A DNA stretch of 64,000 nt from Octopus vulgaris (lineage: Eukaryota). The notes below the pieces were generated by a model. That model saw only the letters and a list, made by a program, of their open reading frames with translations. It made no database searches and had not been told where the DNA came from. Shown in pieces: positions 29,492 through 53,283 of the stretch. How positions within the stretch are numbered: the stretch's first letter is position 1; every line of letters begins with the position of its first letter. A program made the translations under genes and the position numbers. The DNA is taken from NCBI GenBank assembly GCA_951406725.2, contig OX597814.1, forward strand, positions 111,600,001 to 111,664,000. Direction: 5' to 3'.

Positions 29492-31280
29492 ATTTTTTTA
29501 TTACCCATAAAGGGCCCACAAAGAGGGACATATATCACATTGGGGACATACAACAATTGCAAAAAATAAAATAAAATGAAACGGATGATATAATGAAAGA
29601 TGGAAAGATGTAAAAATGAAAATGGTGTTACTTGCCCCCTCAAGTAACATCACTTGCTTCCTTTCCTCTGTTTTCCACTATGTTTAAGCCATACCTCTTT
29701 TTCAGTTCTTTAAATTCGATAACCTGTGGAAGCTTTTCCTTGTCAAAGTCAATCTTCCACAGTTCATACTCCCCCTTGTGCCTCTCTACTTCCATCCTTT
29801 GCTGTTCCGTTAATAACAGCACCACACCTTCCACTCCATCCTCTGCCTCTACATCAACATCAACCGTGTTCTCCCATTCAATTGCCTTTTCAAACAGGCC
29901 CTCATCGTATATTATACAAGCAAAACAGCTAATGGGAGGGGAAATTTGTGAGTCATTGTGTGAATCTGATCTTTTCTTTTGTTTTTGTGATGGAGGGGAA
30001 TGGGAAGGCTTAGTGTCTGCAGGGCGAGGGTGGGACAAAGAAGGTATGGGTGGGCTTTGGGTAGTTGTTGGTGGAAGTTCTGTGTGTATCAGACTTGTCT
30101 TTTCCTCTTCCTTCTCTTTCTTTTTCTGGTATTTTCCCATTCTTCCCCTTTTTCTGGAACCATTTCTTCCTCTTCTTGTCCTTCCTGGGGTTCTCTTGTG
30201 TCTTCTCCTTATGGTCTTCTTGTATTTCCTCCACTCTTTTATCTGGTGGAGGGCATTTCGCTCTTATGTGGCCCTTCTGGCCACATTTAAAACAGTGAGT
30301 TATTCTGCCCTCCACCCTTACATTCATTATGGTTTCGTTTACAGTCACCATTTCCACCATTTCTTCTATTGCCTCATTGGAACCTTGAATTATCCTGTTC
30401 AAAATTTGGCCTTTCCCAATTCATGCTTTCCGTCTTTGTGGCCTGGTGCACCGCTATTTTGTCCTCGGTTTCAGCTAAGACAACAGCCGCTATCCAGGCC
30501 ACATCTATCTCTGGTGGAATTCCTTCTACCCTTATCTGAGATGTTCTCTGTCCCAGGTACGTAGGTAGAAGTACTAACTCACTTAGTGGTGTTGCCGCGT
30601 GCTTTTCCACCATGTTTTCATTTATGAATATATCTTCAACTTCTCCAAATATCGACCCTCTGCCAAGATATGTTATTTCTTGCCAAATTGGCCTCAGCAC
30701 CTTCTTTATTTGCTCTGTTGTCATGTGGTCAATTTTTCCCTTCTTAATCAAGTAGGTCTTGTATGTCACCGTTCTTCCTTTCATTATTTTTGTCGTTTCA
30801 TGTGGTGGTGGTGATGGGGGGGGGTTACTTGCATGTTGTAACCATCCCAACTTAATAATTTCTTGAATTTATCTATTTCGTTCTCCACATTGTCATCTGA
30901 TTCTCCGGCGACATCTGCGAACTTCCTCTTTCTTCCTTCCAATTCCTTGCCCGTAACATCAATAGACCTTAACAGTTCTTCTTCAGATGTTGACATCTCT
31001 GACCCGCTTAGGTCTGAGTAAAATAAATTCCTTTTGCTAGCCATCACTAACTCTGGAAGAGAGAAAACATGACCAAATTGCTGCAAAACAGCACACAGCA
31101 ATCAAAACTTCACAAAAGCAATTCAACAGGCAAACAGAACAGAACTCCGTGCATATAACAACAATCAAGACAATCAAAATCACGTAATCAAAACTAAAAT
31201 CACAAAACCAATTTGAAACTGAAATCCCCATTTGAAATATCAAGACACTGACATTTTTTAAAAAGAACTTCATAGTTTCA
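29492..31280 (-). mobile_element. ORF1-only non-LTR retroelement (Tx1/L1-like ORF1 with CCHC knuckle), frameshifted
   Basis: Chained ORF pieces 31044->29640 (MASKRN...; ...LPTYLGQRTSQIRVEGIPP...; CFKCGQKGHIRAKCP; K-rich linker; C-terminal domain), then ~150 nt of 3' UTR ending GCCCTTTATGGGTAATAAAAAAAT. No RT is present. Confidence 0.8.
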
Positions 31281-34200
31281 AAAGGTAAATAACAACAACA
31301 ACAACAATAAATGCCCTGATGCAGTACCAGGCAGTGGCTCTCGTGGCTTCTGATCTTTACTGATTGGAAGTGTTATCATGTACATTGTTCTGTCTTGGTA
31401 TAAAAGATGAAATACAGCAAATATTCTGCTCAATGCCACATATTTGCTTGTCACTTGTTTGACCTTAACCAGTTGAACATGTCCCTTAGTGGCTGGTGAT
31501 ATGTGAATCTCTGATCACAAGCAGAAGTAGTGGGGGAGCATCATAGCCATGTGTTGAGAGGGATTCTTTGGGGTTTGAATGATTCACCTCTGGAAACATA
31601 GATGTTTCGTTCAACATTCTTAAACAACCCTTATTCAAGGACCTTTTGAATGGGATGGGTTACTCGACCAGAAAAAAATTCTAACTGGGCCCCACCTGCA
31701 AGGTCATATGCTGTTTATCTTGATATGAGATCACCATGTCACCCACATTTGGTTGTGATGCATGTGCCTGGTGTACCCTTATCAGACAGGTAGTCATGAT
31801 GGGTATACTGGGCTTCGTATATTTTACCCCAGTGTCACTTTGATGGCATGCACTGCTCTCTCATTCAATAATAATAATAATAATAATAATGATTCTTCAA
31901 TTTTAACACAAGACAGCAATTTTGAGGGAAGGGATTAGTCAGTTACATCTATTCTGGTACATGACTAGTAATTTATTTTATTACCCTCTCCCCTTGTAGG
32001 ATGAAAGGCAAAGTTGAACTTAGCAAGATTTGAACTCAGAACACAAAGGGCTGAAAGAAATGCTGCTAAGTACTTTGTTTGGTGTGAAGGTGCTCCTGCT
32101 ATGTGATGCCATAAATGGTTTCAAATTTCAAATGAAGGCTGGCAGTTTTGGCATGGTTTCTATAGCTAGATGCCGTTCTTAACACCAGCCACTTGGTACC
32201 CTTTTTATCATAGTAGCAACACTATTGAGATCAGTAAGTAACTAACAAGATAAGACCCCTCAACTGGGTGAGGGTGTAGTATTAAGGCAGGCAGCTTTGT
32301 TGCAGGTGATGAAAGGGGGTTAAAGTATGACAGAGGGACAGGAATAGGTGTCTTGCTGTAGAGGAGATAAAAGGTAACCCCAGCTGGAAAGGGAGAAAAG
32401 AAGTGGCAGTGATGAAATGTCAGGATATTCCTTCAAGGTACAAGAAGGTGAGTATAAAAGAGAATTGGGATCTATTCTATCTCAATCACAGAGTTTTTAA
32501 TTAATTTTTTTAACTAAACAGTTTGAAACTTCAAATACTGATAGAATTTCTCACATAGAACACGGTTTACTCTGAACGTTTTTGGCAAAAATTTCCTATT
32601 TTAGAAGTCATTTCATGTTAAAGGCATGATTTTATCTTACAATAATCAACAACAAACACATTTCGTCAATATAAAAGTCTTTATTAGATAAAAAATAACA
32701 TTATCAAAACATGAAGGTAAAACAAAACAAATAGCAGCTTATATACCAGAAAATACGGTAATTGTAGTGGCAGTGACAAGTTTGCTTGCTGGTTGCTAGT
32801 GTATAAGAGAGGGAAAGAGTAAGGCATGCATGGTGCTGACTAGAATAGAACAGAGTGGCGACATTTAGTAGAGGTGACCCGGAAATTGTTCCTCTTCGAT
32901 TACTATCGCAAACAGCAGTAGCTTTCTTCAACCGAATACACGTTGATTGGTTAAAATTACCCAAATATGACAACTTTAACACGAAATAACTTCTATAATA
33001 GGAAGATTGCGGTTTCGATTCCAAGACCGGGCGTTGTGTGTGTTTATTGAACGAAAACACCTAAAGCTCCACGAGGCTCCGGCAGGGGGTGGTGGCAACC
33101 CCTGTTGTATCTTTCGCTCCAACTTCCTCTCACTCTTTCTTCCTGTTTCTTGTACCCGACTTCCTATACAACCACTGAGCCTGGATGCGCATTCATTCAT
33201 CTGTCGATGCTCTTGGTGTCGGGGGTTGACCTGCTTTCTCTTCCGCAGGTCTTACGAATAGCAAAGGACCTCATTGCGGACTTCTCCCACTACAGGAGAC
33301 GCGATCTGGCGAGCTCTGGGATGAAGACCACTTCGCTCAACAAACAAACAAACTGCAGCAAGTATATGATGCTTTGAAAGCCTGTTACTTGGCATTGATC
33401 AATTGAAGATGTACACTCCTACAACATGACAATGACCCAGCACACACTTCCAATGTCACTGAGTGTAAACTTGAGGGGCCGAATGGGCTGCCCCCCACTG
33501 CCTGTAGTCCATCAGATTACCACCTTTTCCAAGTCATGGCTTCATTTTCTGCATGGACAGAGGTTCGACAGTGTGAAAGAGGTTGAAAACTATGACTGGT
33601 TGTGCTCTTCAGCAGCTTGCTGTAAATAAAATACAGGATGACAGCAGGGATATCTATAAAGTGATAGATATATCACTAAGTGACATAAAGTGATATGTAT
33701 AAATGGGTTGGCATTAGGAAGGGCATCCAGATGTAGAAACCATGCCAAAGCAGTCATTAGAGTATGACACAGCTCCTTCACTCATCAGACTCTATTGAAC
33801 CATCCAACCCATCCCAAGCTGGATGGTATTGATATGTACCACTACAGTCATCATGGAGGCACAATGGACCAGTGATTAGTGCAGCGGACTTGCAATCGTA
33901 GGATCAAAGTTTCGATTCCCAGATCGGGTAGTGTGAGTGTTTATTGAGTGAAAACACTTGAAGCTCCACGAGGCTCCGGCAGAGGGTGGTGGTGAACCCT
34001 GTAGTACTCTTTCACCACAGCTTTCTCTCACTCTTTCTTCTTGTTTCTGTTGTACTTGTATTTCAAAGGGCCAGCCTTGTTGCACTCTGTGTCACGCTGA
34101 ATCTCCCTGAGAACTATGCTAAGGGTACATGGGTCTATGGAGTGCTCAGCCACTTGCATGTTAATTTCATGAGCAGGCTGTTCCGTTGATCGGATCAACT

Positions 34201-34357
34201 GGAACCCTCATCATTGTAACCAACAGAGTGCCACGACTACAGTCATAACTCAAAAGCAAGTATGTCTTGGTAGCATGTATCATGTTTTTGCTAATCGTTT
34301 CTGTGCCAGCAACATATAAAAACACTTGTCCTGATGCCACATAAAAACACCAATGAA

Positions 34358-34722
34358 CATTATTTACATTTGACAGATATTTGTCCTCATATTGTTTGTT
34401 GCTAACCCTCCAGCCTTCATCAGGTGTCTTGGGGAAATTTCAAACCTGGGTTCTCATTCCTAAGGTATCTTTCAATGTTATTAATTATTATTATTATTAC
34501 TATTATTATTATTCAGGTCACCTGAACACTAACACTAACAATAATAATAATTAATATCATTGAAAAATACCATAGGTTTGAAATTTGCCCAAGACACCTG
34601 ATGAAAGCTGGAGGGTATATCAGCCAAAACATGTTAACAACAAACAAGATGAGGACAAATATCCGTCAAATGTAAATAATGTAAATAATGTACATAATTT
34701 CTCATCTCTTAAATATAGATCT
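34358..34722. repeat. Penelope-like inverted repeat with a degenerate hammerhead
   Basis: Inverted arms; ACAC-CTGATGA-AAGCTG...CAGCC-AAAAC. A homologue at 12262-13030 is interrupted by the R4/Dong fragment. Confidence 0.75.
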
Positions 34723-34979
34723 GTAAAAACACCCATGGTGGTGGGATGTAAAAACACCCATGCCACTGCCATGTAAAATACACCCATACTAGTATTACAT
34801 ATATATATACATATATATAGATGTGAGTGAGTGATGGCTGTTGTAGTACATACCACCATCATTTAACATCCAGCTTCAAAACTAATAGTCTGGGGTCAGC
34901 ATCTGCTCTTGGATTATATTATATCTTTGACTTCCTTTGGAGTACACCAATACTTTGCCATCGATTTTATATATATATA

Positions 34980-35500
34980 TGTTTGAGATGAGATGTTTGA
35001 GGGGTATGGTTGGTGTGACACGGATGGACAGGATGAGGAATGAGGAGGTGCGAAGGCGAGCAGGAATGAGAAAAAAACTAACAACCAAAATGGATACACA
35101 TATGTTGAAGTGGCTTGGCCACATGAAAAGGATAGATGAGGAGTGGATGGTAAGGAGGGTGAGGAAGGCAGAAGTGGTAGGTAGCAGAACCAGGGGCAGA
35201 CCTCAGTCTGTGTGGATGGATGGAGTGAGGAAAGCTTTGGTGGTTAGAGGTGTTGGAGTGAGAGAGGCAAGAGACTTTGTAAATGATATGAAAGCTTGGA
35301 GAGTGTGGACGGATGAGTGAATTTGATGATGCTCAAAGGGAACCAGTATGATGCGGTGGGGGTGAACCAGCTTATGCTGTCAGGCCCTGTTGCTGATATC
35401 AGTGGTTGCTTTCTGTACATAGAGCAGGGCTTGCCTCTTTGAGGTGGGAAATGAATTGAACACCTTGTGTGTGTCTTGTGGCTACACTCCTATATTGAAT
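34980..35500 (+). mobile_element. RTE-type LINE 3' fragment (different family)
   Basis: FEMRCLRGMVGVTRMDRMRNEEVR...LKWLGHMKR...RGRPQSVWMD. Confidence 0.85.
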
Positions 35501-36279
35501 TAGGCCTTGGTAAATAATATATATATCATCATCATCATCATCGTTTAACGTCTGTTTTCCATGCTAGCATGGGTTGGATGGTTCGACCGGGGTCTGGGAA
35601 GCCAGGAGGCTGCACCAGGCTCCAGTCTGATCTGGCAGTTTCTACAGCTGGATGCCCTTCGTAATGCCAACCACTCCGTGATTGTAGTGGATGCTTTTTA
35701 CGTGCCACTGGCACAAGTGCCAGGGGGGCATACACACACACACAATGTAGATAGGTTAAAATCCAAGCTGTGTCTCCTTGAAGCACCTTTGCTTATTTCA
35801 GTATTCCAAATCTGTATGTAGATGTTATATATGTGTGAGGCATGAGTGAAAGCTGAAAATAACAGGAAATATTTCTTTTCTGCAGAGCAATAATATCCTT
35901 TTCTACTCTAGGCACAAAGCCCGAAATTTTTGGGGAGGGTGCTAGTCGATTAGATCGACCCCAGTATGCAAGAACAGAATACTTTAATCTTTAATGTTTA
36001 AAATAACATTTTTGTCAGAAATGGATACTCTTATATTTATTCACGAAATCAATAATTACATGTTTAAAAACTATTCCCAAATAACAGAGAAAGAAATATA
36101 TAAATTAACGCTATTGATTTGTTACATAAAACCACAAGTCATCTATTTCTAAGAATTCGCAAAAATTTCTGTTTTGTCTGGAGAGAGTCATTTTCTTTTT
36201 GTGCCTTATTATGTAACACACTCAGTAAAATTTCCACTTATTTCTTATTTTTATTTTCCTAAAATTTGAAATTTCCACT

Positions 36280-36372
36280 TTTTTTCTTATTTTTATTGTC
36301 ACAAAAATTTGAAATAAAAAAAAAAATGTGTAGAGTTCAAGGGAGATAACTGGATTTAAAGTCTCAAGCAAT
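36280..36372 (+). promoter_or_regulatory. probable PTPA proximal promoter / 5' UTR
   Basis: Immediately upstream of the proposed start exon; contains AAGGGAGATAACT (36339-36351). The TSS cannot be determined from sequence. Confidence 0.35.
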
Positions 36373-36385
36373 ATGGCTACCACGG
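36373..36385 (+). CDS. PTPA: PP2A activator (PTPA/PPP2R4), putative coding exon 1 (MATT+G)
   Basis: aatATGGCTACCACGG|gtgagt: ATG followed by a strong donor. The phase-1 end fits the GG that starts exon 2 (forms a Gly codon). Lies in a CpG-retaining, repeat-poor stretch. Too short to confirm by homology. Confidence 0.7.
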
Positions 36386-37780
36386 GTGAGTGTTTGTTCG
36401 ATCAACCGTTTTTAATATTTTTATATTTATTATAAAAGTCATTTTACACTGGTTTTCGGTTCAATTATTTTACCGTGATTCCTTATTCCCAAATTTATAT
36501 CACGCTTTTACATCTTTCATTAAGAATTCAATTAAATTTTTTTAAAAATTGAAACTATTTCTTCGCAGTTAAAATGTCTTGAAATGTTGAGATTCCACCA
36601 AGATTGCTTTCGATGGCTTATTCCACATTGTTCCACTCTTTTCCTTCCTGATTTCCAACAGTCAAGCTATGAAGAATCACCCAAATTTGTTTTGATAAAA
36701 TAAATTCGAAACAAAATAATTTTTTTACGAAATATCTGGATGGGGAGGAGTAGTTTAAGGCTACTTGCGGGAAACGAACCTGCATCTTTCTTAAACTAAT
36801 ATTTATTTCCGTTCCTTTCTTAGTTCAAATCTCGCCGAAATCAGCTTTAGCTTTCATCCTTCCAAGGGTCTATTTAATAACTACTGGTCAACTATTAAGT
36901 CTGTGTAATCGATAATTCCCGCTCCTTTATATATAGAAATCCTCTGCCAAAGTTAAGAATAACCGTTTTAAATTATTACGCTTTCACTTTCACTGTAAAC
37001 TTGTCTCTTTATGTGTTCACAGAATAAAGACCCATCATATCCTGTTATATTAAGTTAATAAACTATGTTGTCTCTACTTATATATTTCTGCTATAAACAA
37101 GAAATATGAATATTTCTTACTGTCAAAAAGAATAAATCTCGAAAAGAAATCTTTGAGCCGATGTATCTGGCTTCTGTAAATCACTGCACTTCACAACATA
37201 CATCTTTAAACTGCTTCTTAGAATATATTACTGCTATTTCTAGTCATTGCAAGGAGTGGCTTTGTAGTAAGTAGCTCGCTTACCAACCACATGGTTCTGG
37301 GTTCAGTCCCGCTGCGTGGCACCTTGGGCAAGTGTCTTCTTCTATAGTCTCGGGCCGACCAAAAGCCTTGTGAGTGGATTTGGTAGACGGAAACTGAAAG
37401 AAGAAGCTCGTCGTATATATATGTATTTATGTTGGTGTGTCCGTGTTTGTCCCCCTCCCCCAACATTACTTGACAACCAATGATGGCGTGTTTACGTCCT
37501 CGTGACTTAGCGGTGCTCTGGCATGGCCGCAGTGAAATGACTGAAACAGGTAAATAAAATAATAATTTCTTTAGATTGTTAGATAATTCTTTGCCTCACT
37601 AAATATTGGTTTCAAATTTTGGTACAAGGCCAGCAACTTGTACGTATTTTATCAACCCCCAAAAGGATAAAGGTCAAACTCGACACTGGCAGCATTTGAA
37701 CTCACGTAGGATAGAAGGACAAAATGTCAATTCTTCTAGCTCGCCGCCTTTGTCACACTAAATATTAACGAAATTAAATC

Positions 37781-38402
37781 ATGATCATCATCATCGTCCA
37801 TTTTCTATGTTGGATTGGGTTGGATGGTTTGATTGAAGCCTGGAGAGCCAGTGGCTGCCCCAGTCTCCAATCTGATCTGGCAGTGTTTCTACAGTTGGAT
37901 GCCCTTCCTAATGCCAACCACTCTGAGAATGTAGCAGGCGCTTTTTATGTGCCAGTGGCACAGGAGCCGGTCAGGTTGGCCTGGCATCGATCATGTTTGG
38001 ATAGTGCTTTTTATGTGCCACTGGTACAGGGGCCAGTCAGAGGGTACTGGCATCAGCCATATTCAGATGGTGCTTTTTATGTGCCACTGGTACTGGTGGC
38101 ATGTAAGAAGCACCATTCAAGTGTGATTGTTGCCAGTGCTGCCTGACTGGCTCCTATGCCATTGGTACGTAAAAAGTATCATTCGAACATGGTTGATGCC
38201 AGTGTCACCTGACTGGCCCTCATGCTGGCGGCACGTAAAAAGCACCCATTACACTCTCGGAGTGGTTGGTGTTAGGAAGGGCATCCAGCTGTAGAAACTT
38301 TGCCAGATCGGATTGGAGCCTGGTGCAGTCATCTAGCTCTCAAACCATCCAACCCATGCTAGCATGGAAAGCGGACGTTAAACTATGATAATGATGATGA
38401 TA
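37781..38402. repeat. head-to-head inverted pair of RTE 3' UTR fragments
   Basis: (CAT)n at the left end, (GAT)n at the right end, inversion centre near 38090. Many single RTE-tail copies elsewhere (e.g. 3455, 8040, 11080, 20000, 23240, 24920, 26913, 35525, 38782, 39480, 46505, 49110, 50310). Confidence 0.8.
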
Positions 38403-40507
38403 ATATAGGCATGTTACATAAGAAAAGGTAAAGAGGTTAGAGAGACCAGTTTGTTGCAACGAGTTCCAGAAACTCTGCTGGACGGCTTAGTGACTCTCTG
38501 GTCTGAGGTTGAATTTCCCAGCTTCTAGAATCTTTAGCTAAATTGGTGTTATTTTTTTGGTGTTATTTTGTTTGTTTATTCATTTTTTTGCCATGCCCTT
38601 ACTGTTTTTTTTAGTAAATTACATTGTAGTGAGGCTCATGCTGAGTATTGAACTATAGCTCTCAGATTTTCCCAGTCTAGAGCCACATCATAATGTATCT
38701 CCATAAATGAAATCAATGCCTACATGACTATGGCTTCACCAATCAGAATTGGTTCACTTATTGTGGTGGAGGCAGCAGACTCATCATCATCATCATCATC
38801 GTTTGACATCCACTTTCCATGCTGGCATGGGTTGGACGGTTTGACTGAGGACCGGCAAGCAAGGGGTCTGCACCAGGCTCCAATCTAATCCGGCAAGGTT
38901 TCTACAGCTGGATGCCCTTCCTAATGCCAACCACTCCGAGAGTGTAGTGGGTGCTTTTTATGTGCCACTGGTACGGGTGCTGGGAGCTGTCTGTCAGGTG
39001 GCATTGGCATCGACCACACTCGAATGGTGCTTTTTATGTGCCAGTCAGGTAGCACTGGCATCAGTCATGCTTGAATGATGCTTTTTATGTGCCACCGGCA
39101 TGGCTGCCAGTGAGGCGGCACTGGCAAATGTTGAAGAATATTAAGCTAAAAACATTCTTGAAATTAAAGCATTGCTTTTTTTATTTTATCTGTTTATCTG
39201 TTTTTCAAGTTCTTTGCCTGTCAGTACTCGTCACTCAACCTAAATGACTTGGCAAATAACATCAAAGTAGCATATCTACCGCCAAACACAACCGGCTTGA
39301 TTTAACATATGGGGCATGTGGCCTCTTGCTATATTCAAGGCCTACTTTTTGCAGTTGCACTTCTTATGAACTTAGCAACAACATTAAGCCAATGCTACTG
39401 GGAGTACTTCTTGGAAGCCTTATGAGTATTTGAGAGAATCTGTTTCCTTCTAAGCTTTTAGTGCTTATTGTCCCTGTACACATCATCATCGTTTAACGTC
39501 CGTTTTCCGAGCTAGCATGGGTTGGATGGTTCGACCGGGGTCTGGGAAGCCAGGAGGCTGCACCAGGCTCCAGTCTGATCTGGCAGTGTTTCTACAGCTG
39601 GATGCCCTTCCTAACGCCAACCACTCCATGAGTGTAGTGGGTACTTTTTATGTGCCACAGGCACAGGTGCCAGGGAGGCTGGCATCATCCACAATCGGTT
39701 GGTGCTTTTTATGTGCCACCAACACAGAAGCCAGTCAAAGCGGCGCTGGCATCAGCCACGTTCGGATGGTGCTTTTTACGTGCCACCGGCACAGTTATCA
39801 CAACTACACCTGCTATATATAAAATCTACCTTCTCTGTTAGCCTACCTATCATCCAATGCACCACTTGTGGACCCTCTATATCAGTTACATCTTATGGAA
39901 TATGACTTGTGTTTCCTTGATAACTGTAGATTCTGTTTTCAACTTTGAAGCTTCTCGATTCTAAGTTTCTGTTTCCATGTTTATAATCTCACACCACTTC
40001 TTTCTTCTCTCTTTAATTCCTTTGACTCCATTTTGAGTATTTGGCCCAGTAAAAGATCTCTCATTTGTCTCGATCCTTGGCATTGGACTGCAGCTGCCTA
40101 TCAGTGCTTCAGCTTGTATGGTTCTTCTCCGTGTTGTTTTTGGTCTGCCATGCTTTCATCTCCCTTGAGATAACCCTGGGCAGATTCAAAATTAGTTTAA
40201 TGGATACACATTTGAAAATGGTTTCGTTTCATTGCTCCTTTCAACTAACGGCCTTAAGCATGCAATGAACAAAATTGATCTTATTATAAAATCGAAGGAA
40301 ACCTTAAATCAGAGGACAGAGTTTGAATACACAGGGTAAATAATTATATGCAAAATATAAATCAATTAATACATTAAAAGTTCTATCCATTTAGAAATTA
40401 AAAATGTTCACACTGGATTACATATACATTGAGCAGCATATTCACATACTAAACCATCTATAATTTACACATATATACTAAAATGTACAGACGCATATAC
40501 ATAGTTA

Positions 40508-40890: not shown

Positions 40891-40932
40891 TATACATATA
40901 TAGATGAGACATAAATATATATATACAAATAC

Positions 40933-40970
<38 letters not shown>

Positions 40971-41306: not shown

Positions 41307-41352
41307 AAAACTGTCTGACGAATGGGAACGTGAAACTCTGAGTAATAGTTTT
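41307..41352 (+). ncRNA. candidate minimal type I hammerhead ribozyme (Penelope-like-element type)
   Basis: AAAACTGT-CTGACGA-ATG GGAA CGT-GAAAC-TCTGA-GTA-ATAGTTTT: intact core, 8-bp stem I, 3-bp stem II, palindromic stem III, GUA cleavage triplet. Confidence 0.65.
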
Positions 41353-41927
41353 TGTGATATTTCTGCTGTTTTTCAAAAAATCATATTACTCTACCTCTGG
41401 TATTCGAGTTCTATTTTTCCCACCTTGTTTCACATTTATGTGCTTACGGTACACACACACATGCGCACATACACACACACACACACATGCATAAGATCCA
41501 GGTATCAAAGTGTAGGAAGTTTGTAAGGTTCAAGCAGTCCATGGCTGGTTTGGAAAACAAAAAGTGGATAGTGTACAATCAAGAACAATAACAATTTATT
41601 GCCATTGAAGGTTACACCCTTTTCCCCATATGCATATATGTATGTATTTATGTAATATATGTATGTATGTATGTATATATGTATGTATATCTATGTATGT
41701 AAGTATATGTATGTATGTATATCTATGTATGTAAGTATATGTATGTATGTATATCTGTATGTAAGTATATGTATGTATGCTTGTACATATACGTATGTAG
41801 GTAGAAACTCTATAAGCTATGGACACATAAGAGGTGCAGCAATGTCAAAAGAAGGCTAACTGGGAAGATAGTTTTTGTATGTGGCAGATGCTCAGGAACA
41901 ATAAACACTGGAAATGCTCTGAGACCA

Positions 41928-43073
41928 ACTTCTGTCACTTTCCAGGGAGAAAAACTAGAAATAGTTGATAGCTTCCGTTACCTGGGTGACCAAGTCAGTA
42001 GCGGGGGTGGGTATGCTGAAAGTGTAACTCCTAGAGTAAGAATAGCTTGGGCAAAGTTCAGAGAGCTCTTACCTCTGCTGGTGACAAAAGGCCTCTCGCT
42101 CAGAGCAAAAGGCAGACTGTATGACGCGTGTGTACGAACAGCCATGCTACATGGCAGTGAAACATGGGCCATGACTGCTGAGGATATGCGTAAGCTCGCA
42201 AGAAATGAAGCCAGTATGCTCCGATGGATGTGTAATGTCTGTTCATACTCGACAGAGTGTAAGTACCTTGAGAGAAAAGCTGGACCTAAGAAGCATCAGA
42301 TGTGGTGTGCAAGAGAGACGTTTGCGCTGGTATGGTCATGTGGCGAGAATGGATGAAGATAGTTGTGTGAAAAAGTGCCACACCCTAGCGGCTGAGGGAA
42401 CCTGTGGAAGAGGCAGACCCAGGAAAACCTGGGACGAGGTGGTGAAGCACAACCTTCGAACTTTAGGTCTCACTGAGGAAATGACTAGAGACCGAGACCT
42501 CTGGAAGTATGCTGTGTGTGAGAAGACCCGGCAGGACAAGTGAGACCATAACCCGTGGCCTTCTACACGGGATGTAGCCAGTCCACTTATGCATACCTTC
42601 CCTTCTTGGGACACAAAACTCTACTTGTGAAGACCTGTTGAGGCAAGTGAGAATCAGCATCAAAATCGATCAATGGAAATTGCAGCTGAGATACCAGTGC
42701 CGGTGGCACGTAGAGAACCATCTGAACGTGGCCGTTGCCAGCGCTGCCCCGACTGCCCTCCGTGCTGGTGGCACGTAAAAAGCACCATCCGTTCGTGGCC
42801 GTTGCCAGCCCTGCCTGGCACCCGTGCCGGTGGCACATAAAAGGCACCATCTGATTGTGGCCGTTTGCCAGACTCGTCTGGCACCAGTGCCGGTGGCACG
42901 TAAAAAGCACCCACTACACTCAAGGAGTGGTTGGCATTAGGAAGGGCATCCAGCCGTAGAAACATTGCCAGATCAGACTGGGCCTGGTGCAGCCTTCTGG
43001 CTTCCCAGACCCCAGTTGAACCGTCCAACCCATGCTAGCATGGAAAGCAGACGTTAAACGATGATGATGATGA
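41928..43073 (+). mobile_element. 5'-truncated RTE-clade LINE (RT C-terminus, 3' UTR, (GAT)n tail)
   Basis: LEIVDSFRYLG...AWAKFRELLPLL...YDACVRTAMLHGSETW...RRLRWYGHVARM...GRGRPRKTW with one frameshift near 42240; stop at 42543; UTR with internal repeats; ends GACGTTAAACGATGATGAT. Confidence 0.93.
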
Positions 43074-43457
43074 TATTATATATATGTAAGTCTGAGCGTT
43101 AAACTAATACATCTGTTGTTTACACACCTGTCTTCATCTTTTGTTTTTTTGTAAATTCTCACTATATATGTATAGATATATGTATGCATGTGTGTCTTTG
43201 TGTTTGTCCTCCTGCTACCATTTGACAACCAGTCTTGGTTTGTTTGCATCCTCGGTAACTCTTCAGATTGGCAAAATGAACCTATAGAATGAGAGTCAGG
43301 TTTTAAAAAATAAGTACTGGGGTTGATTTGTTTAGTTGTACCCTTCATGCTGGTGCCCAGCATGGCCACAATCTAATGACTGAAACAAGTAAAAATATAA
43401 GAGTATTTTAACAATGGAAAAGGATGTGAATTAACACGTTTCCTTCTTGAATTTTAG

Positions 43458-43570
43458 GGGCTGTTGAACCTTCAGTAATGAATCCCATTAATGTAGAAAC
43501 ACATGACTTCAGAATTCCTGTCAGGGAAATCCTTAAACCTGATGATATGGACAAGTGGAGAAAATCTAAG
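43458..43570 (+). CDS. PTPA: PTPA exon 2
   Basis: ttttag|GG...TCTAAG|gtaaac; AVEPSVMNPINVETHDFRIPVREILKPDDMDKWRKSK resembles human PTPA NFIIPKKEIHTVPDMGKWKRSQ. Confidence 0.93.
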
Positions 43571-43789
43571 GTAAACTATTTGTTTCTTCAAAATTGTTGG
43601 TTGATTTTCCTGAGCACAAAAAAAGCAAAAAGAAAAACCCTCCCAAAAAACCATTCCTGTGCTTGACATCCTTCAGCGCCTTTTAATGGTATTTATTGTT
43701 CTGTCTTGATTTATTAAATTTGTTCTCAAACAATCCAGAAGCAGAAAAAGTCATTTCATTGTTTTATTCTTCTTTATTCTTAGACATGG

Positions 43790-44445
43790 CAAGTGAAATC
43801 ATCATCGTGGATGATGACAGTACCGCCTGATTGGCATCTGTGTTGGTGGCATGTAAAAAGCACCATTTGAGCATGGTCGATGCCAGTGCTGCCTGACTGG
43901 TCCTGTGCCGGTGGAACATAAAAAGCACCATTTGAGTGTTGTCGATGCCAGTACCAGCTGACTGGTCCCATGCTGGTGGCATGTAAAATGCACCATTCAA
44001 GCATGGTTGATGCCAGTGCCAGCTGACTAGTCCAATGCCGGTGGCATGTAAAAAGTACCAGTTAAGCGTGGTTGATGCCAGTGCTGGTTGACTGGTCCTG
44101 TGCCGATGGCACATAAAAAGTACCATTCAAGTGTGGTTGATGCCATTGCCACCTGACTGGTCCTGTGCCTGTGGCACATAAAAAGCACCGTTTGAGCATG
44201 GTCTACGCCAGTGCCACCTGATGGTCTCGTGCCTGTGGCATGTAAAAAGCACCATTTGAGCGTGGTTGTTGCCATTGCCACCTGACTGGCTACTGTGCCA
44301 GTGACATGTAAAAGTACTATTCAAGTGTAGTTGTTGCCAGCACCGCCTGACTTGCCCTCGTGTCGGTGGCACATAAAAAACACCCACTACTCTCGGAGTA
44401 GAAACTTTGCCAGATCAGATTGGAGCCTGGTGCAGCCTTCTGGCT
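43790..44445 (+). repeat. RTE 3'-UTR-derived element with ~9 tandem 65-bp units
   Basis: GGTGGCATGTAAAAAGCACC recurs every 65 nt (GCACC at 43860, 43925, 43990...). Confidence 0.9.
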
Positions 44446-44719
44446 GGATGTCTCCTGGGGCTAAATTATAGCAACATTCGTCCTAAACCAGGACTGCCAT
44501 GTTGGTAAACAATCTTTACTCTGAAATAAAGTTATTGTATTTCAATCATCTTTCTAGATGGTGCTTAACTTTGGTTATAGGAAGAGAATTGGTGTTTGCA
44601 ATATGATATGGCTGTGTAATTAAGATGTTTGCTTCTCAACTGTGTTGAATGCTCATAGAACAGTCAAGCCAAGAAATTTTGAAAATTGTCCATAATTTTC
44701 ATCATAAAAAAATGCTAAA

Positions 44720-45155
44720 AATTATCTACCAACATAACATGGCAGTCTTGGTTTAAGACGAATGTTGCTGTAATTTAGCCCCAGGAGACATTGTCTCCAA
44801 CTGGCTATATGACACAATCTGTGTCCTTATTTTTTCGAACAAGGGCATTTAGCATTCCCACTCAGCTCAAAACAATATCTGTGTATCGCGATTTCTGGGT
44901 TATTTCCCTTCATCAGCATAGAATAATTGTTCGGCTGGGTGGGGCGCTGCCAAATTCCTGTTCAAAATATATAGTTTGAAGGGAAATAACCTGGAAATTG
45001 CAATACATAGATATTGTTTTGAACTGAGTGGCGGGTGCTAAATGCCCTTGTTTGAAAAAAAAAAAGAAAATATAAGGACACAATGTCTCCTGGGGCTAAA
45101 TTACAGTAATATTCATCCTAAACCAGGACTGCCATGTTATGTTGGCAAATAATCT
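44720..45155. repeat. palindromic MITE-like element, with an extra partial arm at 44448-44523
   Basis: TAATTTAGCCCCAGGAGACATTGT / ACAATGTCTCCTGGGGCTAAATTA and inner arms GTTATTTCCCTT / AAGGGAAATAAC. Confidence 0.85.
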
Positions 45156-45931
45156 TTACTCTAGAGTACTGTTGCTGAATATCTCTCATTGAGAGATTTA
45201 GAAATAGTAATTTTCTATAAAAAATGCTGTGCAGTTTTTTTCACCAATAGCCTGGGTACCCTCCATGACATTATCATATTATTCCCCTTTAATTTCCAAG
45301 TTGTTAAGATTTCCACCAGCAGAAAGGAGTCTGTACTTGGTAACACTCCAAACCACCAACAACTTGCTACTCGTGTTTTACATTTAAACTGTGATGTATG
45401 GTCAAAATCTTTTTTTTTATGTGTTAAAGGTTGATATAGAATCTGTTTTTTTTTTCTTGTACTCTAGACACAAGGCTGGAAATTTTTTTTTTGGTAGGGG
45501 AGGCCAGTTGACTAGATCGACCCCAGTATGCAACTGGTGCTTAATTTATCAACCCTGAAAGGATGAATGGCAAAGTTGATCTTGGCAGAATTTGAACTCA
45601 AAATGTAAAGACAGACAAAATACCGCTAAGCATTTCACCCAACGTGCTAACGTTTCTGCCAGCTCGCCGCCTTTAGAATCTGTCTTTGATACATGTCTAC
45701 GTTTTTACAACCAAAATATTGCAAGACTTCTGAGGAATTGATGCTGTCAACATTTATTATGCTTTAGCCTTGAGAACCTGATTATTCCATAAAAAACTGA
45801 AAAGTAGCTGCTCCAGTTTGGGCCAACTATTCCTTGTTCTAATATTTTATTCTATGCAACAAGATTAATGGAAACATTTGCAAGTATCTAGGGGTCCTCA
45901 CCCTCTATGTCTCATTAGATTTTTATCATAG

Positions 45932-46325
45932 GTGCAGGAGTGGCTGTGTGGTATGTAGCTTGCTTACCAACCACATGGTTCCGGGTTCAGTCCCACTGCG
46001 TGGCACCTTGCACAAGTGTCTTCTATAGCCTCGGACCAACCAAAGCTTTGTGAGTGGATTTGGTAAACGGAAACTGAAAGAAGCCTGTTGTATATATGTA
46101 TATGTATATTTATGTGTGTGTGTGTTTGTGTTTGTTCCCCCAACATCGCTTGACAACCAATGCTGGTGTGTTTACGTCCCCGTAACTTAGCGGTTCGGCA
46201 AAACAGACCGATAGAATAAGTACTAGGTTTACACAGAATAAGATCTGGGATCGATCTGCTTGACTAAAGGTGGTGCTCCAGCATAGCTGCAGTCAAATGA
46301 CTGAAACAAGTAAAAGAGTAAAAAA
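45932..46325 (+). mobile_element. tRNA-derived SINE family B (CORE-like CCTTGGGCAAGT, internal (TA)/(TG) tract)
   Basis: Head GCAGGAGTGGCTGTGTGG...GGTTCAGTCCC; tail GACTGAAACAAGTAAAAG. Other copies at ~5540-5890(-), 8629-9030(-), 18190-18580(+), 20600-21036(-), 37250-37560(+) and 48580-49040(-). Confidence 0.88.
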
Positions 46326-47582
46326 GTAATCTAGTACTTCCAAGTACCAATCCTTAGTCAGTTTAGTCCAATATCAAAGACCAGGCAGTATGAGTTTGCT
46401 GTTCCTGGTGTAAGAGGTATTACCAATTGCTCAACCTCCTGACTAAAGTGCCTGAAGCTAATAGAAGCAACAATCTTGTAACTGAGTGTATAATCAGACA
46501 GGTCATTATCATCATCATCATCGTTTAACGTCCGCTTTCCATGCTGGCATGGGTTGGATAGTTTGACTGAGGACTGGCAAGCCAGGAGGCTGCACCACGC
46601 TCAAATCTAATCTGGCAAAGTTTCTACAGCTGGATGCCCTTCTTAGTACCAATCACTCTGAGAGTGTAGTGGGTGCTTTTTACATTCCACAGGCATGGGA
46701 GCCAGTCAGGCAGTACTGGCATCAATCACACTCAAATGGTGCTTTTTACGTGCCATTGGTATGGGGGCCGGTCAGGTGGCACTAGCATCGACCATGCTTG
46801 AATGGTGCTTTTTACGTGCGACCAGCATGGGGGCCAGTCAGGCAGCTCTGGCATTGACCACATTCAAATGGTGCTTTTTACGTGCCACCGGCATGAGTGC
46901 CAGTCAAGCAGCACTGGCATTGGCCATGACTAGGTGGCACTTGGTGACTTATAATGGTTACTGAGTTACTGCTTGTTTTATAGTCTAGAGACTCAGTTAT
47001 TAGGACCGAAGACAAGTCACACGTCCTTATCAGAGACTGCAGCTAGGTAAAATGGTTGATCTTATGAAACAGTTTCAATAGATGTAAAGTGATTTGGCTT
47101 TCAGTAAATCTAAATGAAGACCCAACTGTCTCCAAGGGGTGTTGTTTAATGTTTGTTGTCTGAATGGTTGGTTTGTTAATGTTTCAGAACACAAGTTTGA
47201 CAAACCAATTACATATATGAAACTTACAATTTAAAAAAAAAAAAAATGTTTAATATATTTGACCCATTCGTATTTAAACCAGCCACATCCAACCCAAATA
47301 TTCAACCAGTTTTATGTTCACACTGGCCATATCTGGCCTCTCACACTTAGCCTACAATGTTATTCTAAAAATAAACAGTCACATCATGGAAATCTCAGTT
47401 ATGAAATATTGCATGATTAATTCAAAAGCAATCTGAATAAATAAGCATTATTTTTGATAAAATAATATGAATGTTGAAGCGTTAAGTGATGCTTCCTTCA
47501 TATAAATAATTTCTTCCTTTTTTTAAAAAACCTTAATTGATAATTTCGAAATACATTTGAATTTACTGACTTCTCATTGCAG

Positions 47583-47669
47583 GCAAACAACGATCTTTTG
47601 GGTTTCATTATTGCAATGAATAATTCAGTGAAATCAATGAAAATATCTGGCACCTACCCAATATCTGAG
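47583..47669 (+). CDS. PTPA: PTPA exon 3
   Basis: ttgcag|...GAG|gtaagt, 87 nt; ANNDLLGFIIAMNNSVKSMKISGTYPISE vs human AYADYIGFILTLNEGVKGKKLTFEYRVSE. Confidence 0.94.
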
Positions 47670-48428
47670 GTAAGTAAAACATGAATTTAATGATACATCA
47701 TCATCATCATCATTTAACATCCCTTGTCCATGCTGGCATGGATCGGACAGCATGACCAGGGCTGGTAAGCTGGAAGGCTGCACCAGACTCCAGTCTGATT
47801 TGGCATGGTTTTCCAAGAATGTAATGGGTGCTTTTATGTGCCACCGGCAAGGGTGCCATTTGTGTGGCACTGGTATCTGCCACTACTGCAATTTTGCTTG
47901 GCTTGATGGGTCTTCTTCTTAAGCATGATATAATACCAAAGGTCTCGGTCGTTGCTTCTGTGAGGCCCAACACTTGAAAGTAACTCAGCCACTTTGTCTC
48001 CATGAGGCCCGCCTCTTTTTACATGTAAGAAAGCACCATTCACGTGTGGCTGATGCCAGTGCTGCCTGACTGGCTCCCGTGACATGTAAAAGCACCCATT
48101 ACACTCTTGGAGTGGTTGGCATTAGGAAGGGCACCCAGCTGTAGAAACCTTGCCAATTCAAGATTGGAGCCTGGTGCAGCCTCTCAGCTTGCCATTTCTC
48201 AGTCAAGCTGTCCAACCCATGCCAGCATGGAAAGTGGACGTCAAACGACGACGACAACTTTTGTCCACCGTACTAACGATTCTTTCAGCTTGCCAATGAC
48301 ATGAACAACAATGGTGCTGATGATGATGATGGTGAGTGAAATGGATGATAATGATAACAATGAGGAAAAGGATCATAATTTTCTGATTGATTGAGTTGTA
48401 AGTGAATTTGATTTTCTAAATATTGTAG

Positions 48429-48554
48429 ACTGTGAAGAAACTGATGGGCCTTTTGGATACGTTGGATCAATGGATGACGGACATTCTTCCGATTGACCAA
48501 CCTCAGAGATTTGGCAACAAAGCTTTCCAAAAGCTTTATATTAAACTGAAAGAG
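48429..48554 (+). CDS. PTPA: PTPA exon 4
   Basis: ttgtag|...GAG|gtaagc, 126 nt; TVKKLMGLLDTLDQWMTDILPIDQPQRFGNKAFQKLYIKLKE contains the PTPA RFGNKA motif. Confidence 0.96.
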
Positions 48555-49843
48555 GTAAGCTTTTAATTCTCTTTTCATCTTTCATTTGTTTCAGTCATTG
48601 GACTGTGGTCATGCTGGGCACTGCTTTCAGGAATTTTTAGTTGAATTACTCGACCCCAATACTTATATATATTTTTTTAAAGCATGGTATTTATTCTCTC
48701 CGGTCTCTTTTGCTGAACTGTTTAGTGATGAGGACGTAAACATACCAACACTGGTTGTGAGGGACAAATGCAAACACACACACACACATATGTACATACA
48801 TACATACTCACACACATGCAAACACACATATATACACACACACGTACACACATACACATATGCACGCATGTGCACTCACATGATGGGCTTCTTTCAGTTT
48901 CTGTCTACCAAATCCACTCACAAGGTTTTGCTCAGCCTGAGGCCATAGTAGGAGACACTTGCCCAAGGTGCCATGCAGTGGGACTGAACTCGGAACCATG
49001 TGGTTGGGAAGCAAGCTTCTTACCACACATCCACGCCTGTGCCTTCACACAACCATGCCTGCACTTATGTAATTTATATACATTTAAAGTGTTAATCCTT
49101 TAACTGGTGTCAAGCAAATGGCACGTAAAAGCACCCATTACACTCTTGGAGTGGTTGGTGTTAGAAAGGGCATCCATCTGTAGAAACCATGCCAAATCAG
49201 ACTGGGGTCTGGTGCAGCCTTCCAGCTTGCTAGCCCTGCTCAAACCGTCCAACCCATGCCAGCATGAACATCATCATCATCATCATCTTTTAACATCCGT
49301 TTTCCATGCTGGCATGAGTTGGACGGTTTGACAGGACTGTCAAGCCAGGAGACAGCACCAGGCTCCAATCTGATCTGGCAGAGTTTCTACAGCTGAATGC
49401 CATTCCTAATGCCAACCACTCCGAGATTGTAGTGAGTCAGTCAGGCGGCACTGGCATCAACTACGCTTGAATGGTGCATTTTACGTGCCACTGGTACGGA
49501 AGCCAATCAGGCAGCACTGGCATAGCCAACGCTTGAATGGTGCTTTTTTATATACCAGCAGCACGGGAGCCAGTGAGGCGGCACTGGCATTGACCACACT
49601 CGAATGGTTCTTTTTACGTGCCACCGACATGGGAGCCAGTCAGGCAGCACTGGCATCAGCCACAACAACGATTTCACTTGATTCCGTAGGACAACAAATG
49701 CTAAATGATGCTGATGATGATGGTATGATACCTGTAACCTATGCAGGAGATATATAAACAGAGCTAATTTAGCTGATTTCTCTTTACATTGGAAGAAAAC
49801 GAGTCCTGTGGAAATATTTAGTTCTTTGTTTTTGTCTTTTCAG

Positions 49844-49961
49844 AATGTTGTAGAGGAAATGGAAAAATGTTTTGATGAAAAATATCACAAAGGTTTCCCA
49901 GAAATATCTACTTATCTGGTTGAAGGGATTGGTAATTCCACAAGAATTGATTATGGCACAG
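49844..49961 (+). CDS. PTPA: PTPA exon 5
   Basis: tttcag|...ACAG|gttagt, 118 nt; ...PEISTYLVEGIGNSTRIDYGT(G) contains the hallmark GNSTRIDYGTG motif. Confidence 0.97.
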
Positions 49962-51218
49962 GTTAGTCATGTCACCTTTGGATTTCTTTCTTTCCCATTG
50001 TTTGTCTTAAAAAAACGATATCTTTTTCATGAAAGCTGACACCTTGCTTGCATTAGTTACTGGGGACAAAAGTTGACAAGTGGTTAGATCAAGGGTGGAG
50101 ACCTCCCCCCCCCCGCAGGTACAACTGCACTCGTGGGTACGTTTTATTGTGCCCCCAGGCTGATATTCTCATGTACAGCCAGATCCAGCCTATCACACTT
50201 TCCCTTCAATGCCATTCTAAAATATACAATCACATCATAAAAATTTCAGAGCTACAAAATAACGTATGATTAGTTAAAAACAATATGAATGAAAAAGCAT
50301 TTTGACAGTATCATCATCATCATCATCCTCGTTTAATGTCTGCTTTCCGTGCTGGCATGTGTTGGACGGTTTGACTGAGGAGTGGTGAGCTAGAGGCTGC
50401 ACCAGGCTCAATCTGATCTGGCAAGGTTTCAACAGCTTGATGCTCTTCCTAATGCCAACCACTCCGAGAATGTAGTGGGTGCTTTTATGTGCCAACAGCA
50501 CATGTGCTGGTAAGGTGACGCTGTCAATGATCATGCTCGAATGGTGCATTTCATGTGCCAACAGCACATGTGCTTGTAAGGCGACGCTGTCAATGATCAC
50601 GCTCGAATGGTGCATTTCATGTGCCACCCGCAGTGGAGCCAATCCGTGGCCCTGGCGACGATCATGCTCAGACGTGCTTTTAATGTTCCACTGACACGAG
50701 TGCCAATGAGGCGGTACTGTCATTGGCCACGTCAGTGATTTTGATAAAGAGTTAAATATGTCGTATCTCAATGTGTTTCAAAGTCAGATTATTTCATATT
50801 CCAGCCCCATTCTTTCTACTGTCTTCACCTTCATCATCATCAAATGTCTGTTGTCCATGCTGGCATGGGTTGGATGGTTTGACCAGGGCTGGTAAGCCGG
50901 AAAGCTGTACCAGACTCTAGTCTGATTTGGCATGGTTTCTATGGCTGGATACCCATCCTAACACCAACCACTCAGAGTGTAGTAGGTGGTTTTATGTGCC
51001 ACTGGCATGACATCAGTATCTGCCATGGCTGTGATTTTGCTCAGCTTGATGAGTCTTCTTCTCAAACATGACATAATGCCAAAGGTCTCGGTCATTGCCT
51101 CCATGAGGCCCAACGCTCAAAAGGAACATCATTTTAAAATTTTCCCACTAGGAATTGAACTCATGTCCTTATGATCTATTGACTAACTCATACATTTCCT
51201 CTTTTTCTTTTGCTTCAG

Positions 51219-51318
51219 GCCATGAAATGTCTTTTGCTGCTTTCCTCTGTACCTTATATAAAGTAGGGATCCTTACTGAGGCCGATGCCCCAGCTATTGT
51301 CTTGAAAGTCAACGAGAA
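51219..51318 (+). CDS. PTPA: PTPA exon 6
   Basis: cttcag|GC...AA|gtgagt, 100 nt; HEMSFAAFLCTLYKVGILTEADAPAIVLKVNE(K) vs human HEAAFAAFLCCLCKIGVL. Confidence 0.96.
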
Positions 51319-51601
51319 GTGAGTATGATCACCCATCAGTAATAATGCTCTTTATATTGGACAGAGTCTTTCAGTCTTCTGTCAAACTTTGCTCTTCTTC
51401 AGGTGTCTTTAAAGAATGTTGAATGAAAGTTTTCCAGAATATTGTGATGAATGCAGTCATGGCTGTGCACAGGTGGCGTTTTGTGTAACCATGTGGCTTT
51501 GAGTTCTTTCTCACTGAGCAGTATCACAGATTGCTTCTGCTGTAGCTTCTGGCCTCGTGAGTGGATTTGGTAATGGAAACTGTTGGAAGCCCATTGTCAC
51601 C

Positions 51602-51657
<56 letters not shown>

Positions 51658-51800
51658 ATTGCAGCATGGAAGGTGTTTATAAGCCATTTATATACACACA
51701 AAAGCCGTTAGATTCACTTCAACATTTAAATTTAATTTGTCAAAATATTTTCGTCACTTTGAGACCATGACCTATTCACTGACAAAATTCCGTGCTGCAT

Positions 51801-51835
<35 letters not shown>

Positions 51836-52639
51836 AGAACTTTGCTTCCCAACCACATGGTTTTGGGTTCAGTTCTACTGTGTGTCACCTTAGGCAAATG
51901 TCTTCCACTAGTTCCAGGCCAACCAAAGCCTTGTGCATGGAATTGGTATACAGAAAATGAAAGAAGCTTGTATATGTGTGTCCATGGATGTGTGTGTTAG
52001 TGTCTTTTGTCTTGACATCATGTGCCAAAATTAGAAACAATATTTATTATTGTTATTAAGGCAGTGAGCTGGCAGAATCATTAGCGCTCTGGGTGAATTG
52101 CTTAGCGGTATTTCATCTGCCATTAAATTCTGAGTTCAAATTCCTCTGAGGTTGACTTTGCTTTTATCCTTTTAGGGTTGATAAAATTAGTACCAGTTAT
52201 GCACTGGAGTTGATGTAATCAACTTAATCCCCTTCCTCTAGAAAGGATTATTATTATTATTAAGGCGGCGAGCTGGCAGAATCGTTAGCACGCCGGACGA
52301 AATGCTTAGTGGTATTTCGTCTGTCGTTGTGAGCTCAAATTCTGCCGAGGTCGACTTTGCCTTTCATGCTTTTGGGAACGATAAATTAAGTACCAGTTAC
52401 ACACTGGGGTCGATGTAATCGACTTAATACCTATGTCTGTCCTTGTTTGTCCCCTCTATGTTTAGCCCCTTGTGGGTAGTAAAGAAATAGGTATTTTGTC
52501 TGTCCCTACATTCTGAGTTCAAATTCCGCCAAGGTTGACTTTGCCTTTCATCCTTTTGGGGTTGATAAAATAAGTACTAGTTACGTACTGGGGTCGATGT
52601 CATCAACTCATCCCTTCCCCCCAAATTGCTGCCCTTGTG

Positions 52640-53283
52640 GCAAAATTTGAAACTCTGTTTTCCTTTGCCTGATGACTGGCAAATGAGATTGTTTGGTGGA
52701 CAAGGCTGAAAGGCATGAGGACAGATATGTTCCTCTTTGGTAAAGCTCTCATTGACTTCTTCAAGTTTCACTTGAAAAGGGAAATGAGAGTGGAGAGGGA
52801 AGTGCTTTCCTTGAGTGAGTTATAGAAAGGTGAGTGAAAGTTACAAAAATGGCAAGAGTGGATGGTACCTTTCTAAGTGTAGAGTTGTGAGTTGGAGAGA
52901 AGGAATTGGAGAGGGCACTTGCTCCTAGGGTTTCAAGGAAATCTTGGAGAGTGGGGTTCCTCGATTAACCCTAGAGGCCTTCCTGTGTCAGGAAGGCCAC
53001 ATCTCTATCATCCACCCCCTCTTTTTTATTTATTTTAATTTTATTTTTAATTTCATTTTTAATTTTATTTTTTATTAAAATTTTTTTTTTTAACCTTTGT
53101 ATGCTATCCAAATGTCCCCTGTTATCCAATGTATATGGTGTATACTTTATTTTTGTTTTTTTAATGCTTTTATTTTTTATATTTTTTTTATCATTTCATT
53201 ATTATTATGCAAACCCCCCACACTTTATGTCTATCTCTGTATTGTCCCTCTTGTCCTTTGCCCTTGTGGCAAATAAATGAAAT
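52640..53283 (+). mobile_element. 3' end of a Tx1/L1-like LINE (ORF2 C-terminus plus 3' UTR)
   Basis: Degenerate frame LANEIVWWTRLKGMRTDMFLFGKALIDFFKFHLKREMRVEREVLS resembles Tx1/L1 ORF2 C-termini. A T-rich UTR ends GCCCTTGTGGCAAATAAATGAAAT. Confidence 0.6.

Follow-up and report, generated by a model that had tools for sequence, protein, structure and literature searches.

Non-autonomous long interspersed nuclear elements (LINEs) that keep their first open reading frame (ORF1) are known as HAL1 in L1, HeT-A in Jockey and Ag-Sponge in CR1, and the available portions of two papers that list such elements hold no target-specific Tx1-like example (PMC5786205, PMC5753468). Such coding elements cannot be the source of short interspersed nuclear elements (SINEs), according to the part of this literature available (PMC5786205). 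Among the telomeric families of flies about 40% are ORF1-only, as given in part of PMC13534243. In octopus, OK, OR1 and OR2 are published SINEs (cited in PMC4758252, available in part), and in the accessible text of an octopus study L1-Tx1 appears once, in a table (PMC13282606). Here we analyse a window, by which we mean a whole stretch of 64,000 nucleotides from Octopus vulgaris (assembly GCA_951406725.2, contig OX597814.1, positions 111,600,001 to 111,664,000 of the forward strand), in which an ORF1-only element (family H), a LINE fragment (LINE-B) and a SINE (SINE A) end in similar 3′ tails. We consider it probable that this tail is a 3′ signal common to a radiation of L1/Tx1-group LINEs, to ORF1-only elements and to SINE variants, and that LINE ORF2 proteins, by recognising its hairpin, copy passengers into the target sites that they themselves prefer.

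Results

The 3′ tail and its stem

Positions are window coordinates throughout, and tails were compared over 38 nt counted from TGTCC. The initial annotation had described similar tails at the ends of the three elements. All three are present verbatim, and their likeness is beyond chance: they share 27, 29 and 31 bases in pairwise comparison, scores that no shuffle among 5000 reaches; of 5000 random segments of the window, 2, 2 and 3 do so, and these are probably further SINE A copies. Each tail also folds into the small CCC-loop-GG(G) stem claimed for it, with a stability that is unremarkable in two of the three (z against shuffles of -0.96 for the ORF1-only tail, -2.59 for LINE-B and -0.21 for SINE A).

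Rather than being limited to one class, the tail ends LINEs, ORF1-only elements and SINEs alike, and one of this kind stands at the end of every L1/Tx1-group LINE family sampled (e.g. C1, C2, C3, E and Y1-Y5). We compared the stems of 39 tails, one or two per family, from 13 LINE rows, 25 ORF1-only rows and SINE A, applying one stem rule to real and chimeric tails alike. A 4-bp stem with at least three Watson-Crick pairs is found in 26 of the 39, against 11.6±2.5 in chimeric tails (maximum 20 in 5000); an earlier rule, whose anchor missed some true stems, gave 19/38 against 7.6±1.9. The stems take 12 different sequences, including GCCC/GGGT, TGCC/GGCA, AGGC/GCCT and GAGC/GCTC. On these sequence comparisons the hairpin stem is maintained by compensatory changes, and its covariation across 39 tails supports the view that one tail type is common to all three classes. 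A common 3′ tail with a covarying stem-loop, one mark of a stringent LINE/SINE pair, is found here.

ORF1-only elements

Family H was searched at the DNA level (816 candidates, of which 40 were scored). The relatives of the window's copy are full-length or nearly so (1.58-1.71 kb, 69-87% identity), with ORF1 contiguous with the tail. The intact ORF1 of one relative has a predicted fold (mean pLDDT 80) with tandem RRMs, a CCHC knuckle, a disordered linker and a C-terminal alpha/beta domain. The idea that this C-terminal domain is exclusive to ORF1-only proteins was dropped, since LINE ORF1s also carry a C-terminal region; BLASTP gave no alignment between the C-terminal regions of the two kinds. 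Named relatives of ORF1 come from Octopus and Argonauta only, which argues against an origin from mammalian L1, as in HAL1 proper.

A search with ORF1 returned 13,492 candidates. No endonuclease or reverse transcriptase (RT) sequence was found on the same strand within ~6 kb past ORF1 in any of 20 long-ORF loci, two of which gave weak opposite-strand RT matches, nor downstream of ORF1 in any of ten distant relatives of the window's ORF1. The family tail follows ORF1 in 32 of 49 loci, and the intact ORFs encode 431-463 aa. These elements thus show the structure of the HAL1 and HeT-A kind: many independent, full-length copies, flanked by target-site duplications (TSDs), in which ORF1 runs into a LINE 3′ end and ORF2 is absent.

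In trees of the ORF1 core, which sampled 11 LINE ORF1s, the ORF1-only rows form two groups with no LINE inside. Group 1 holds 17 rows, including the window element (support 85/94; 13-row core 100/97), and group 2 holds 15 rows (98/91) and falls near the LINE-B ORF1. A second tree was built without three rows (the window's 7-kb element, LINE-E and one unassigned). The best tree has two groups, and a single origin is not rejected (p-AU 0.305). As far as these sequences tell, the ORF1-only elements are one or two old lineages that hold no LINE. The ratio of non-synonymous to synonymous substitutions (dN/dS) is 0.11-0.22 in six ORF1-only pairs and 0.14 in one LINE pair, with three further pairs saturated, which indicates that the passenger ORF1 is under purifying selection and has been kept functional after loss of ORF2. 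O. bimaculoides proteins nest inside group 2, and single contigs bridge the ORF1 stop and the tail in two other organisms, which bears on structure and not on expression; the ORF1-only structure is thus not confined to this assembly. No RNA data matching a young ORF1-only unit were listed.

The window holds a far diverged ORF1-like element at 5890-7530 on the minus strand (~28% to the 29-kb ORF1), with a different 3′ end, a long tree branch and no detectable ORF2; one relative of it lies in the flank of locus L317. The host sequence around the family H copy (29250-29491 and 31131-31290) recurs in L032, where a related element occupies this very site (81-87% alike); this may reflect an independent insertion or an old duplication. 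In L064 (9200-9830) an internally deleted element joins an ORF1 start to the 3′ end of LINE-C1, beside a family-H copy.

LINE families

The fragment at 52.6-53.3 kb had been read as a Tx1/L1-like LINE, and this reading is borne out. It is the ORF2 end of an L1/Tx1-group element, matching intact ORF2s at 42-49% identity over 45-48 aa (E 1e-10 to 1e-11), and longer copies, from a LINE-B search with 3486 candidates, have APE (PF03372) and RT (PF00078) domains. A 145-aa C-terminal piece of LINE-B has no Pfam match; for the C-terminal zinc-binding region of ORF2, a LINE-C copy matches PF13966. LINE-C1 has no full-length copy among those recovered. The LINE-B ORF1 is 29-36% identical to the window's ORF1. 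Intact LINE ORF2s measure 1127-1133 aa, and by hand count ~37 of 150 ORF2 matches are open for at least 1128 aa. The solved RT closest to the Y1 ORF2 is human L1 ORF2 (E 6.7e-65 over 865 aa), with R2 at 5e-26. Homologue searches returned no relative named Tx1, and the label "Tx1-like" rests on architecture and targeting; target preference, a strict Tx1-clade trait, is present in Y4, LINE-B and LINE-C.

SINE A

SINE A is short (~232 bp), non-coding and flanked by TSDs (identified in 13 of the 18 dispersed copies, nine of these TSDs beginning GGTA), and ends in a LINE-type 3′ tail. ARAGORN found no tRNA in it, and a locus holding a copy has no Rfam tRNA match. The same body is also found with other tails: 200 kb sampled at even coordinates hold 6-7 SINE A tails, 8 tail-1 copies and 9 tail-3 copies under a loose rule. 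The second SINE of the window, which precedes the LINE-B fragment (Table 1), probably served as the target into which the adjoining SINE A copy inserted. The head-plus-unit arrays might have come from a dimeric SINE master, but targeted insertion fits them better given L136, L202 and Y4; recombination may also be a source of such arrays. Tail-bearing elements in L115, L123 and L169 sit in a SINE head away from the Y4 site.

Targets and arrays

Family H and LINE-C occupy the same two targets of one host repeat, with 6/19 and 3/19 family H copies and, by a strict rule, 5/30 and 2/30 LINE-C copies at targets 1 and 2. The TSD is ~26 bp for family H at target 1 and at least 21 bp for a LINE-C1 copy, and the two families adjoin in L065. 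Family H likely rides LINE-C families.

Copies of LINE Y4 are 98-100% alike, all 30 of them run into one SINE-head motif, and a full-length copy has a TSD of 16 bp. Ten of 28 SINE A copies continue into this site, which accounts for 13 of the 935 GGTA words in the 200-kb sample. SINE-in-SINE insertions at the Y4 site occur in L136 and L202, where the head is duplicated and the TSD measures 13-16 bp. The likely driver of SINE A is Y4 or one of its relatives. Young units, 99-100% alike, are stacked head to tail on one strand as Z1x5-Z2-Z4-Y1 and as Z1-Z5-Z3x3-Y1, and the ORF1-only Z4 and the LINE Y1 have an identical tail and 3′ junction.

LINE-B differs in its flanks, with 15/23 of its 3′ ends in ATT/ATC repeats and no family-H relative (0/19) with such a flank. 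Compared by TSD length and target, as the initial annotation suggested, the ORF1-only elements and SINE A share both with L1/Tx1-group LINEs.

In L085 and L088 (and by eye in L086 and L097) a LINE-C subfamily lies in mariner-like transposase sequence. A small host repeat with a CAAA microsatellite and a terminal hairpin, presumably Helitron-like, occurs in L064, L066, L083, L091 and L116, and three of its sites are taken by different LINE and ORF1-only families, one of them on the opposite strand. Several ORF1-only families insert just before GAAA...CTGATGA (3′ flanks in L182, L184, L187, L188, L192 and L201), a motif that we take to recall a hammerhead ribozyme core. At the target sites Rfam returned only microsatellite noise, with no match to a ribozyme, tRNA or snRNA.

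Source of the SINE tails

The 55-nt tail of SINE A is closest to that of the ORF1-only family S (L316 52/55, L337 47/55), with Y1 at 47/55 and Y4 and LINE-B at 45/55. Among 30 loci with a close, non-identical 5′ half of this tail, 22 have ORF1 upstream, three are SINEs, five have no match and none has ORF2. A tight pattern for the full SINE A tail in a non-SINE matched one SINE copy alone. Tail 1 is best matched by LINE-B, whose hairpin matches the tail-1 SINE variant, the SINE just upstream of the LINE-B fragment, and tail 3 by an ORF1-only family. The LINE-B tail ranks 24/38 against the ORF1-only tail and 27/38 against that of SINE A. This low rank, together with its preference for ATT repeats, suggests that LINE-B is probably not the partner of the window's passengers, and it likely moves neither family H nor SINE A.

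We advance with more reserve, judging it somewhat short of even, the proposal that the very abundant SINE A took its tail from an ORF1-only passenger and not from a LINE, that the SINE then became an insertion target for the LINE that mobilises it, and that in octopod genomes one or two ORF1-only lineages outlived and switched among many site-specific Tx1-like drivers by exchanging the 40-nt tail. L316 alone could be a convertant, yet its relatives have the same tail type. Donation of a tail only by an ORF1-only element would qualify, and not overturn, the argument in PMC5786205.

Features of the window

Fragments resembling the ORF2 ends of other LINE clades lie at 12518-12913, 34931-35320 and 41805-42543, and the three pieces scanned have no Pfam match. 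A highly uniform tandem satellite fills 54400-64000 (unit 327-338 bp, ~28 copies, mostly 100% identical). Outside the window, L065 (1783-3429) holds a Penelope-like element with RT and GIY-YIG domains.

Table 1. Coordinates of the retroelement features in the window.
Feature	Position	Strand	Basis
ORF1-only non-autonomous retroelement, family H, 1.64 kb; 5′ end ~25 nt short	29492..31130	-	relatives' alignment
ORF1 in four frameshifted pieces: two predicted RRMs, CCHC knuckle, charged linker, C-terminal domain	29640..31044	-	intact relative's fold
15-bp TSD, 5′ copy	31131..31145	-	sequence
15-bp TSD, 3′ copy	29476..29490	-	sequence
ORF1-only 3′ tail, GCCC-TTTAT-GGGT hairpin and A-rich end	29492..29530	-	sequence, fold
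SINE A head and two 184-bp units, 18-bp TSD enclosing the whole	9399..9814	-	sequence
SINE A copy, 14-bp TSD starting GGTA	14095..14326	-	sequence
SINE A copy	17580..17811	-	sequence
SINE A copy with box A/B-like motifs (by eye) in its head, then body and 55-nt tail	52262..52489	+	sequence
SINE A tail, GCCC-CTTGT-GGGT hairpin; closest tail that of ORF1-only family S	52448..52488	+	sequence, tail comparison
Remainder of second SINE, same body, other tail (TGCC-CTTGT-GGCA), beginning at GGTATTT site of LINE Y4/SINE A insertion	52490..52653	+	sequence
LINE-B fragment, 5′-truncated: ORF2 end, 3′ untranslated region, tail, then CAT/TAT repeats	52657..53283	+	sequence comparison
LINE-B tail, TGCC-CTTGT-GGCA hairpin	53243..53283	+	sequence, fold
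SINE A copy, 3′ junction at GGTA	53454..53685	-	sequence

Discussion

We observe a common tail with compensatory stems, common targets and TSD lengths, mixed arrays, and purifying selection on ORF1. These patterns suggest mobilisation in trans, which could proceed as follows. The ORF2 of a LINE would bind the tail hairpin, and its endonuclease would nick a preferred sequence and so set the target; a few bases at the RNA end that resemble the target may help priming. The TSD of each insertion would restore the target, so that later insertions stack upstream and arrays arise. The passenger ORF1 would package its own RNA in cis. Where SINE A lands in a SINE, the cDNA likely joins the homologous head, giving a head-unit-unit structure such as that at 52262-52653. 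The three-member system of the initial annotation would then give way to a guild of many families.

Several observations weigh against such recognition in trans. The ORF1-only and SINE A hairpins of the window are no more stable than shuffles, and the chimera control overstates independence because the families are related. Among 30 short ORF1 loci a single one (L164) shows RT sequence, 0.4 kb past the core, and 15 of the 49 ORF1 loci have no tail match, two further matches being other repeats. Neither LINE-C target holds the ORF1-only copy of the window, and 10 of its 19 relatives also lie elsewhere. Most SINE-in-SINE units have no head duplication, and recombination could also produce them. 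In a pattern search for non-Y4 elements, the exact Y4 junction was found in three SINE A copies and in no ORF1-only element. The tails of Y4 and LINE-B are equally close to that of SINE A, so that only the target links Y4 with SINE A, and an unsampled LINE could be the donor of the SINE A tail. The flanks common to LINE-B and the tail-1 SINE are weak, with 2/6 in ATT repeats.

The alternative that fares best, though we hold it unlikely, treats the tail as an inherited 3′ untranslated region with a role at the RNA 3′ end, ORF2 being loose and the partner being set by co-assembly of ORF1 or by pairing between RNA and target. An AATAAA-like hexamer in most tails, the weak folding of the window hairpins and 3′ junctions that often have a few target-matching bases (GGTA in L202) are consistent with it, and passenger ORF1 proteins may multimerise with those of the partner, as part of PMC5786205 states. 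A SINE, however, makes no ORF1, and yet it has three hairpin variants, each closest to a different LINE or ORF1-only tail; moreover, ORF1-only families of both clades have the stem of the young LINEs with which they stack.

It is also conceivable, and in our judgement quite improbable, that SINE A acquired its tail passively and is moved by another clade (RTE, CR1 or R4-type) through GGUA microhomology, with SINE-in-SINE units formed by recombination. The TSDs of dispersed SINE A copies that begin GGTA are at sites other than the full Y4 site, RTE-like fragments lie in the window, and active RTE, CR1 and Dong-R4 are reported from an octopus in the available part of PMC13282606. Against this stand the full 55-nt tail retained in nearly all SINE A copies, the insertion of SINE A at the nucleotide used by Y4 with the TSD length of Y4, and the three SINE A copies that have Y4's own junction bases.

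Least probable of all is the single enzyme of the initial annotation, in which both the ORF1-only element and SINE A depend on the RT of LINE-B for their movement: the LINE-B tail has 27 and 31 of 38 bases in common with the two passengers' tails, its 20 nt upstream of TGTCC resemble those of SINE A (which ranks 3/38 for the LINE-B tail) and its ORF1 is near the second ORF1-only clade, but its tail ranks and ATT flanks set it apart, its stem is TGCC/GGCA against GCCC/GGGT in the passengers, its RT is ~51% identical (pairwise, as in all RT comparisons) to the young LINEs that share the passengers' targets, and its copies are 74-88% alike and broken, whereas the site of SINE A is used by a young family with 98-100% identity.

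Recognition of a common hairpin by many LINE families would bear on two general questions, namely how an L1-group ORF2 picks its RNA (by poly(A) or by a folded tail) and what benefit ORF1-only elements draw from the protein that they encode. The genome offers young intact LINEs, matching ORF1-only passengers, SINE variants and a dozen compensatory stems, a panel that suits tests of tail recognition, ORF1 cis-preference and endonuclease specificity. Thousands of octopod ORF1-like matches may be passengers, and not truncated LINEs or host genes. We found no account of such a system in the literature, Repbase, Dfam, subscription journals and supplements lying outside the search; the octopus families may already be in the repeat library of PMC13282606.

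In the available portions of the papers cited below, each component has a described counterpart. Like HAL1, HeT-A and Ag-Sponge, the octopus elements join a LINE 5′ part and ORF1 to a 3′ end, have no ORF2 and form many full-length copies with TSDs; unlike them, they comprise dozens of families down to ~23-35% ORF1 identity, with many targets and a hairpin tail. Head-to-tail arrays that mix complete with ORF1-only families recall the Drosophila telomeric HeT-A, TAHRE and TART (PMC13534243), although the fly arrays belong to the Jockey clade and lie at chromosome ends, and those of octopus belong to the L1/Tx1 group and occupy dispersed interstitial targets within other repeats.

The crocodilian Tx1-Mar and SINEU likewise link a SINE to a Tx1 LINE by a common target in another transposon (PMC4494074), and a mariner-targeting LINE family is found in octopus as well. 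SINEU carries snRNA heads, and the accessible text reports no partner tail; in octopus, by contrast, tail and target are both common, the SINE itself can be the target, and ORF1-only elements form a third class. In maize, sorghum and Chlamydomonas (PMC3747384), stringent LINE/SINE pairs of the L1 clade also have a 3′ stem-loop with compensatory changes, but they involve plant and algal L1 with poly(A), and the available text mentions neither target specificity nor an ORF1-only partner. In bivalves, SINEs that have several LINE partners (PMC11481361) similarly swap tails on one body; their partners come from other clades, with no mention of "Tx1" in the text available, whereas the octopus SINE tails all fall in a single hairpin family, two or three of them having an ORF1-only element as best donor. 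The octopus combination thus puts known kinds of element together in an unusual way.

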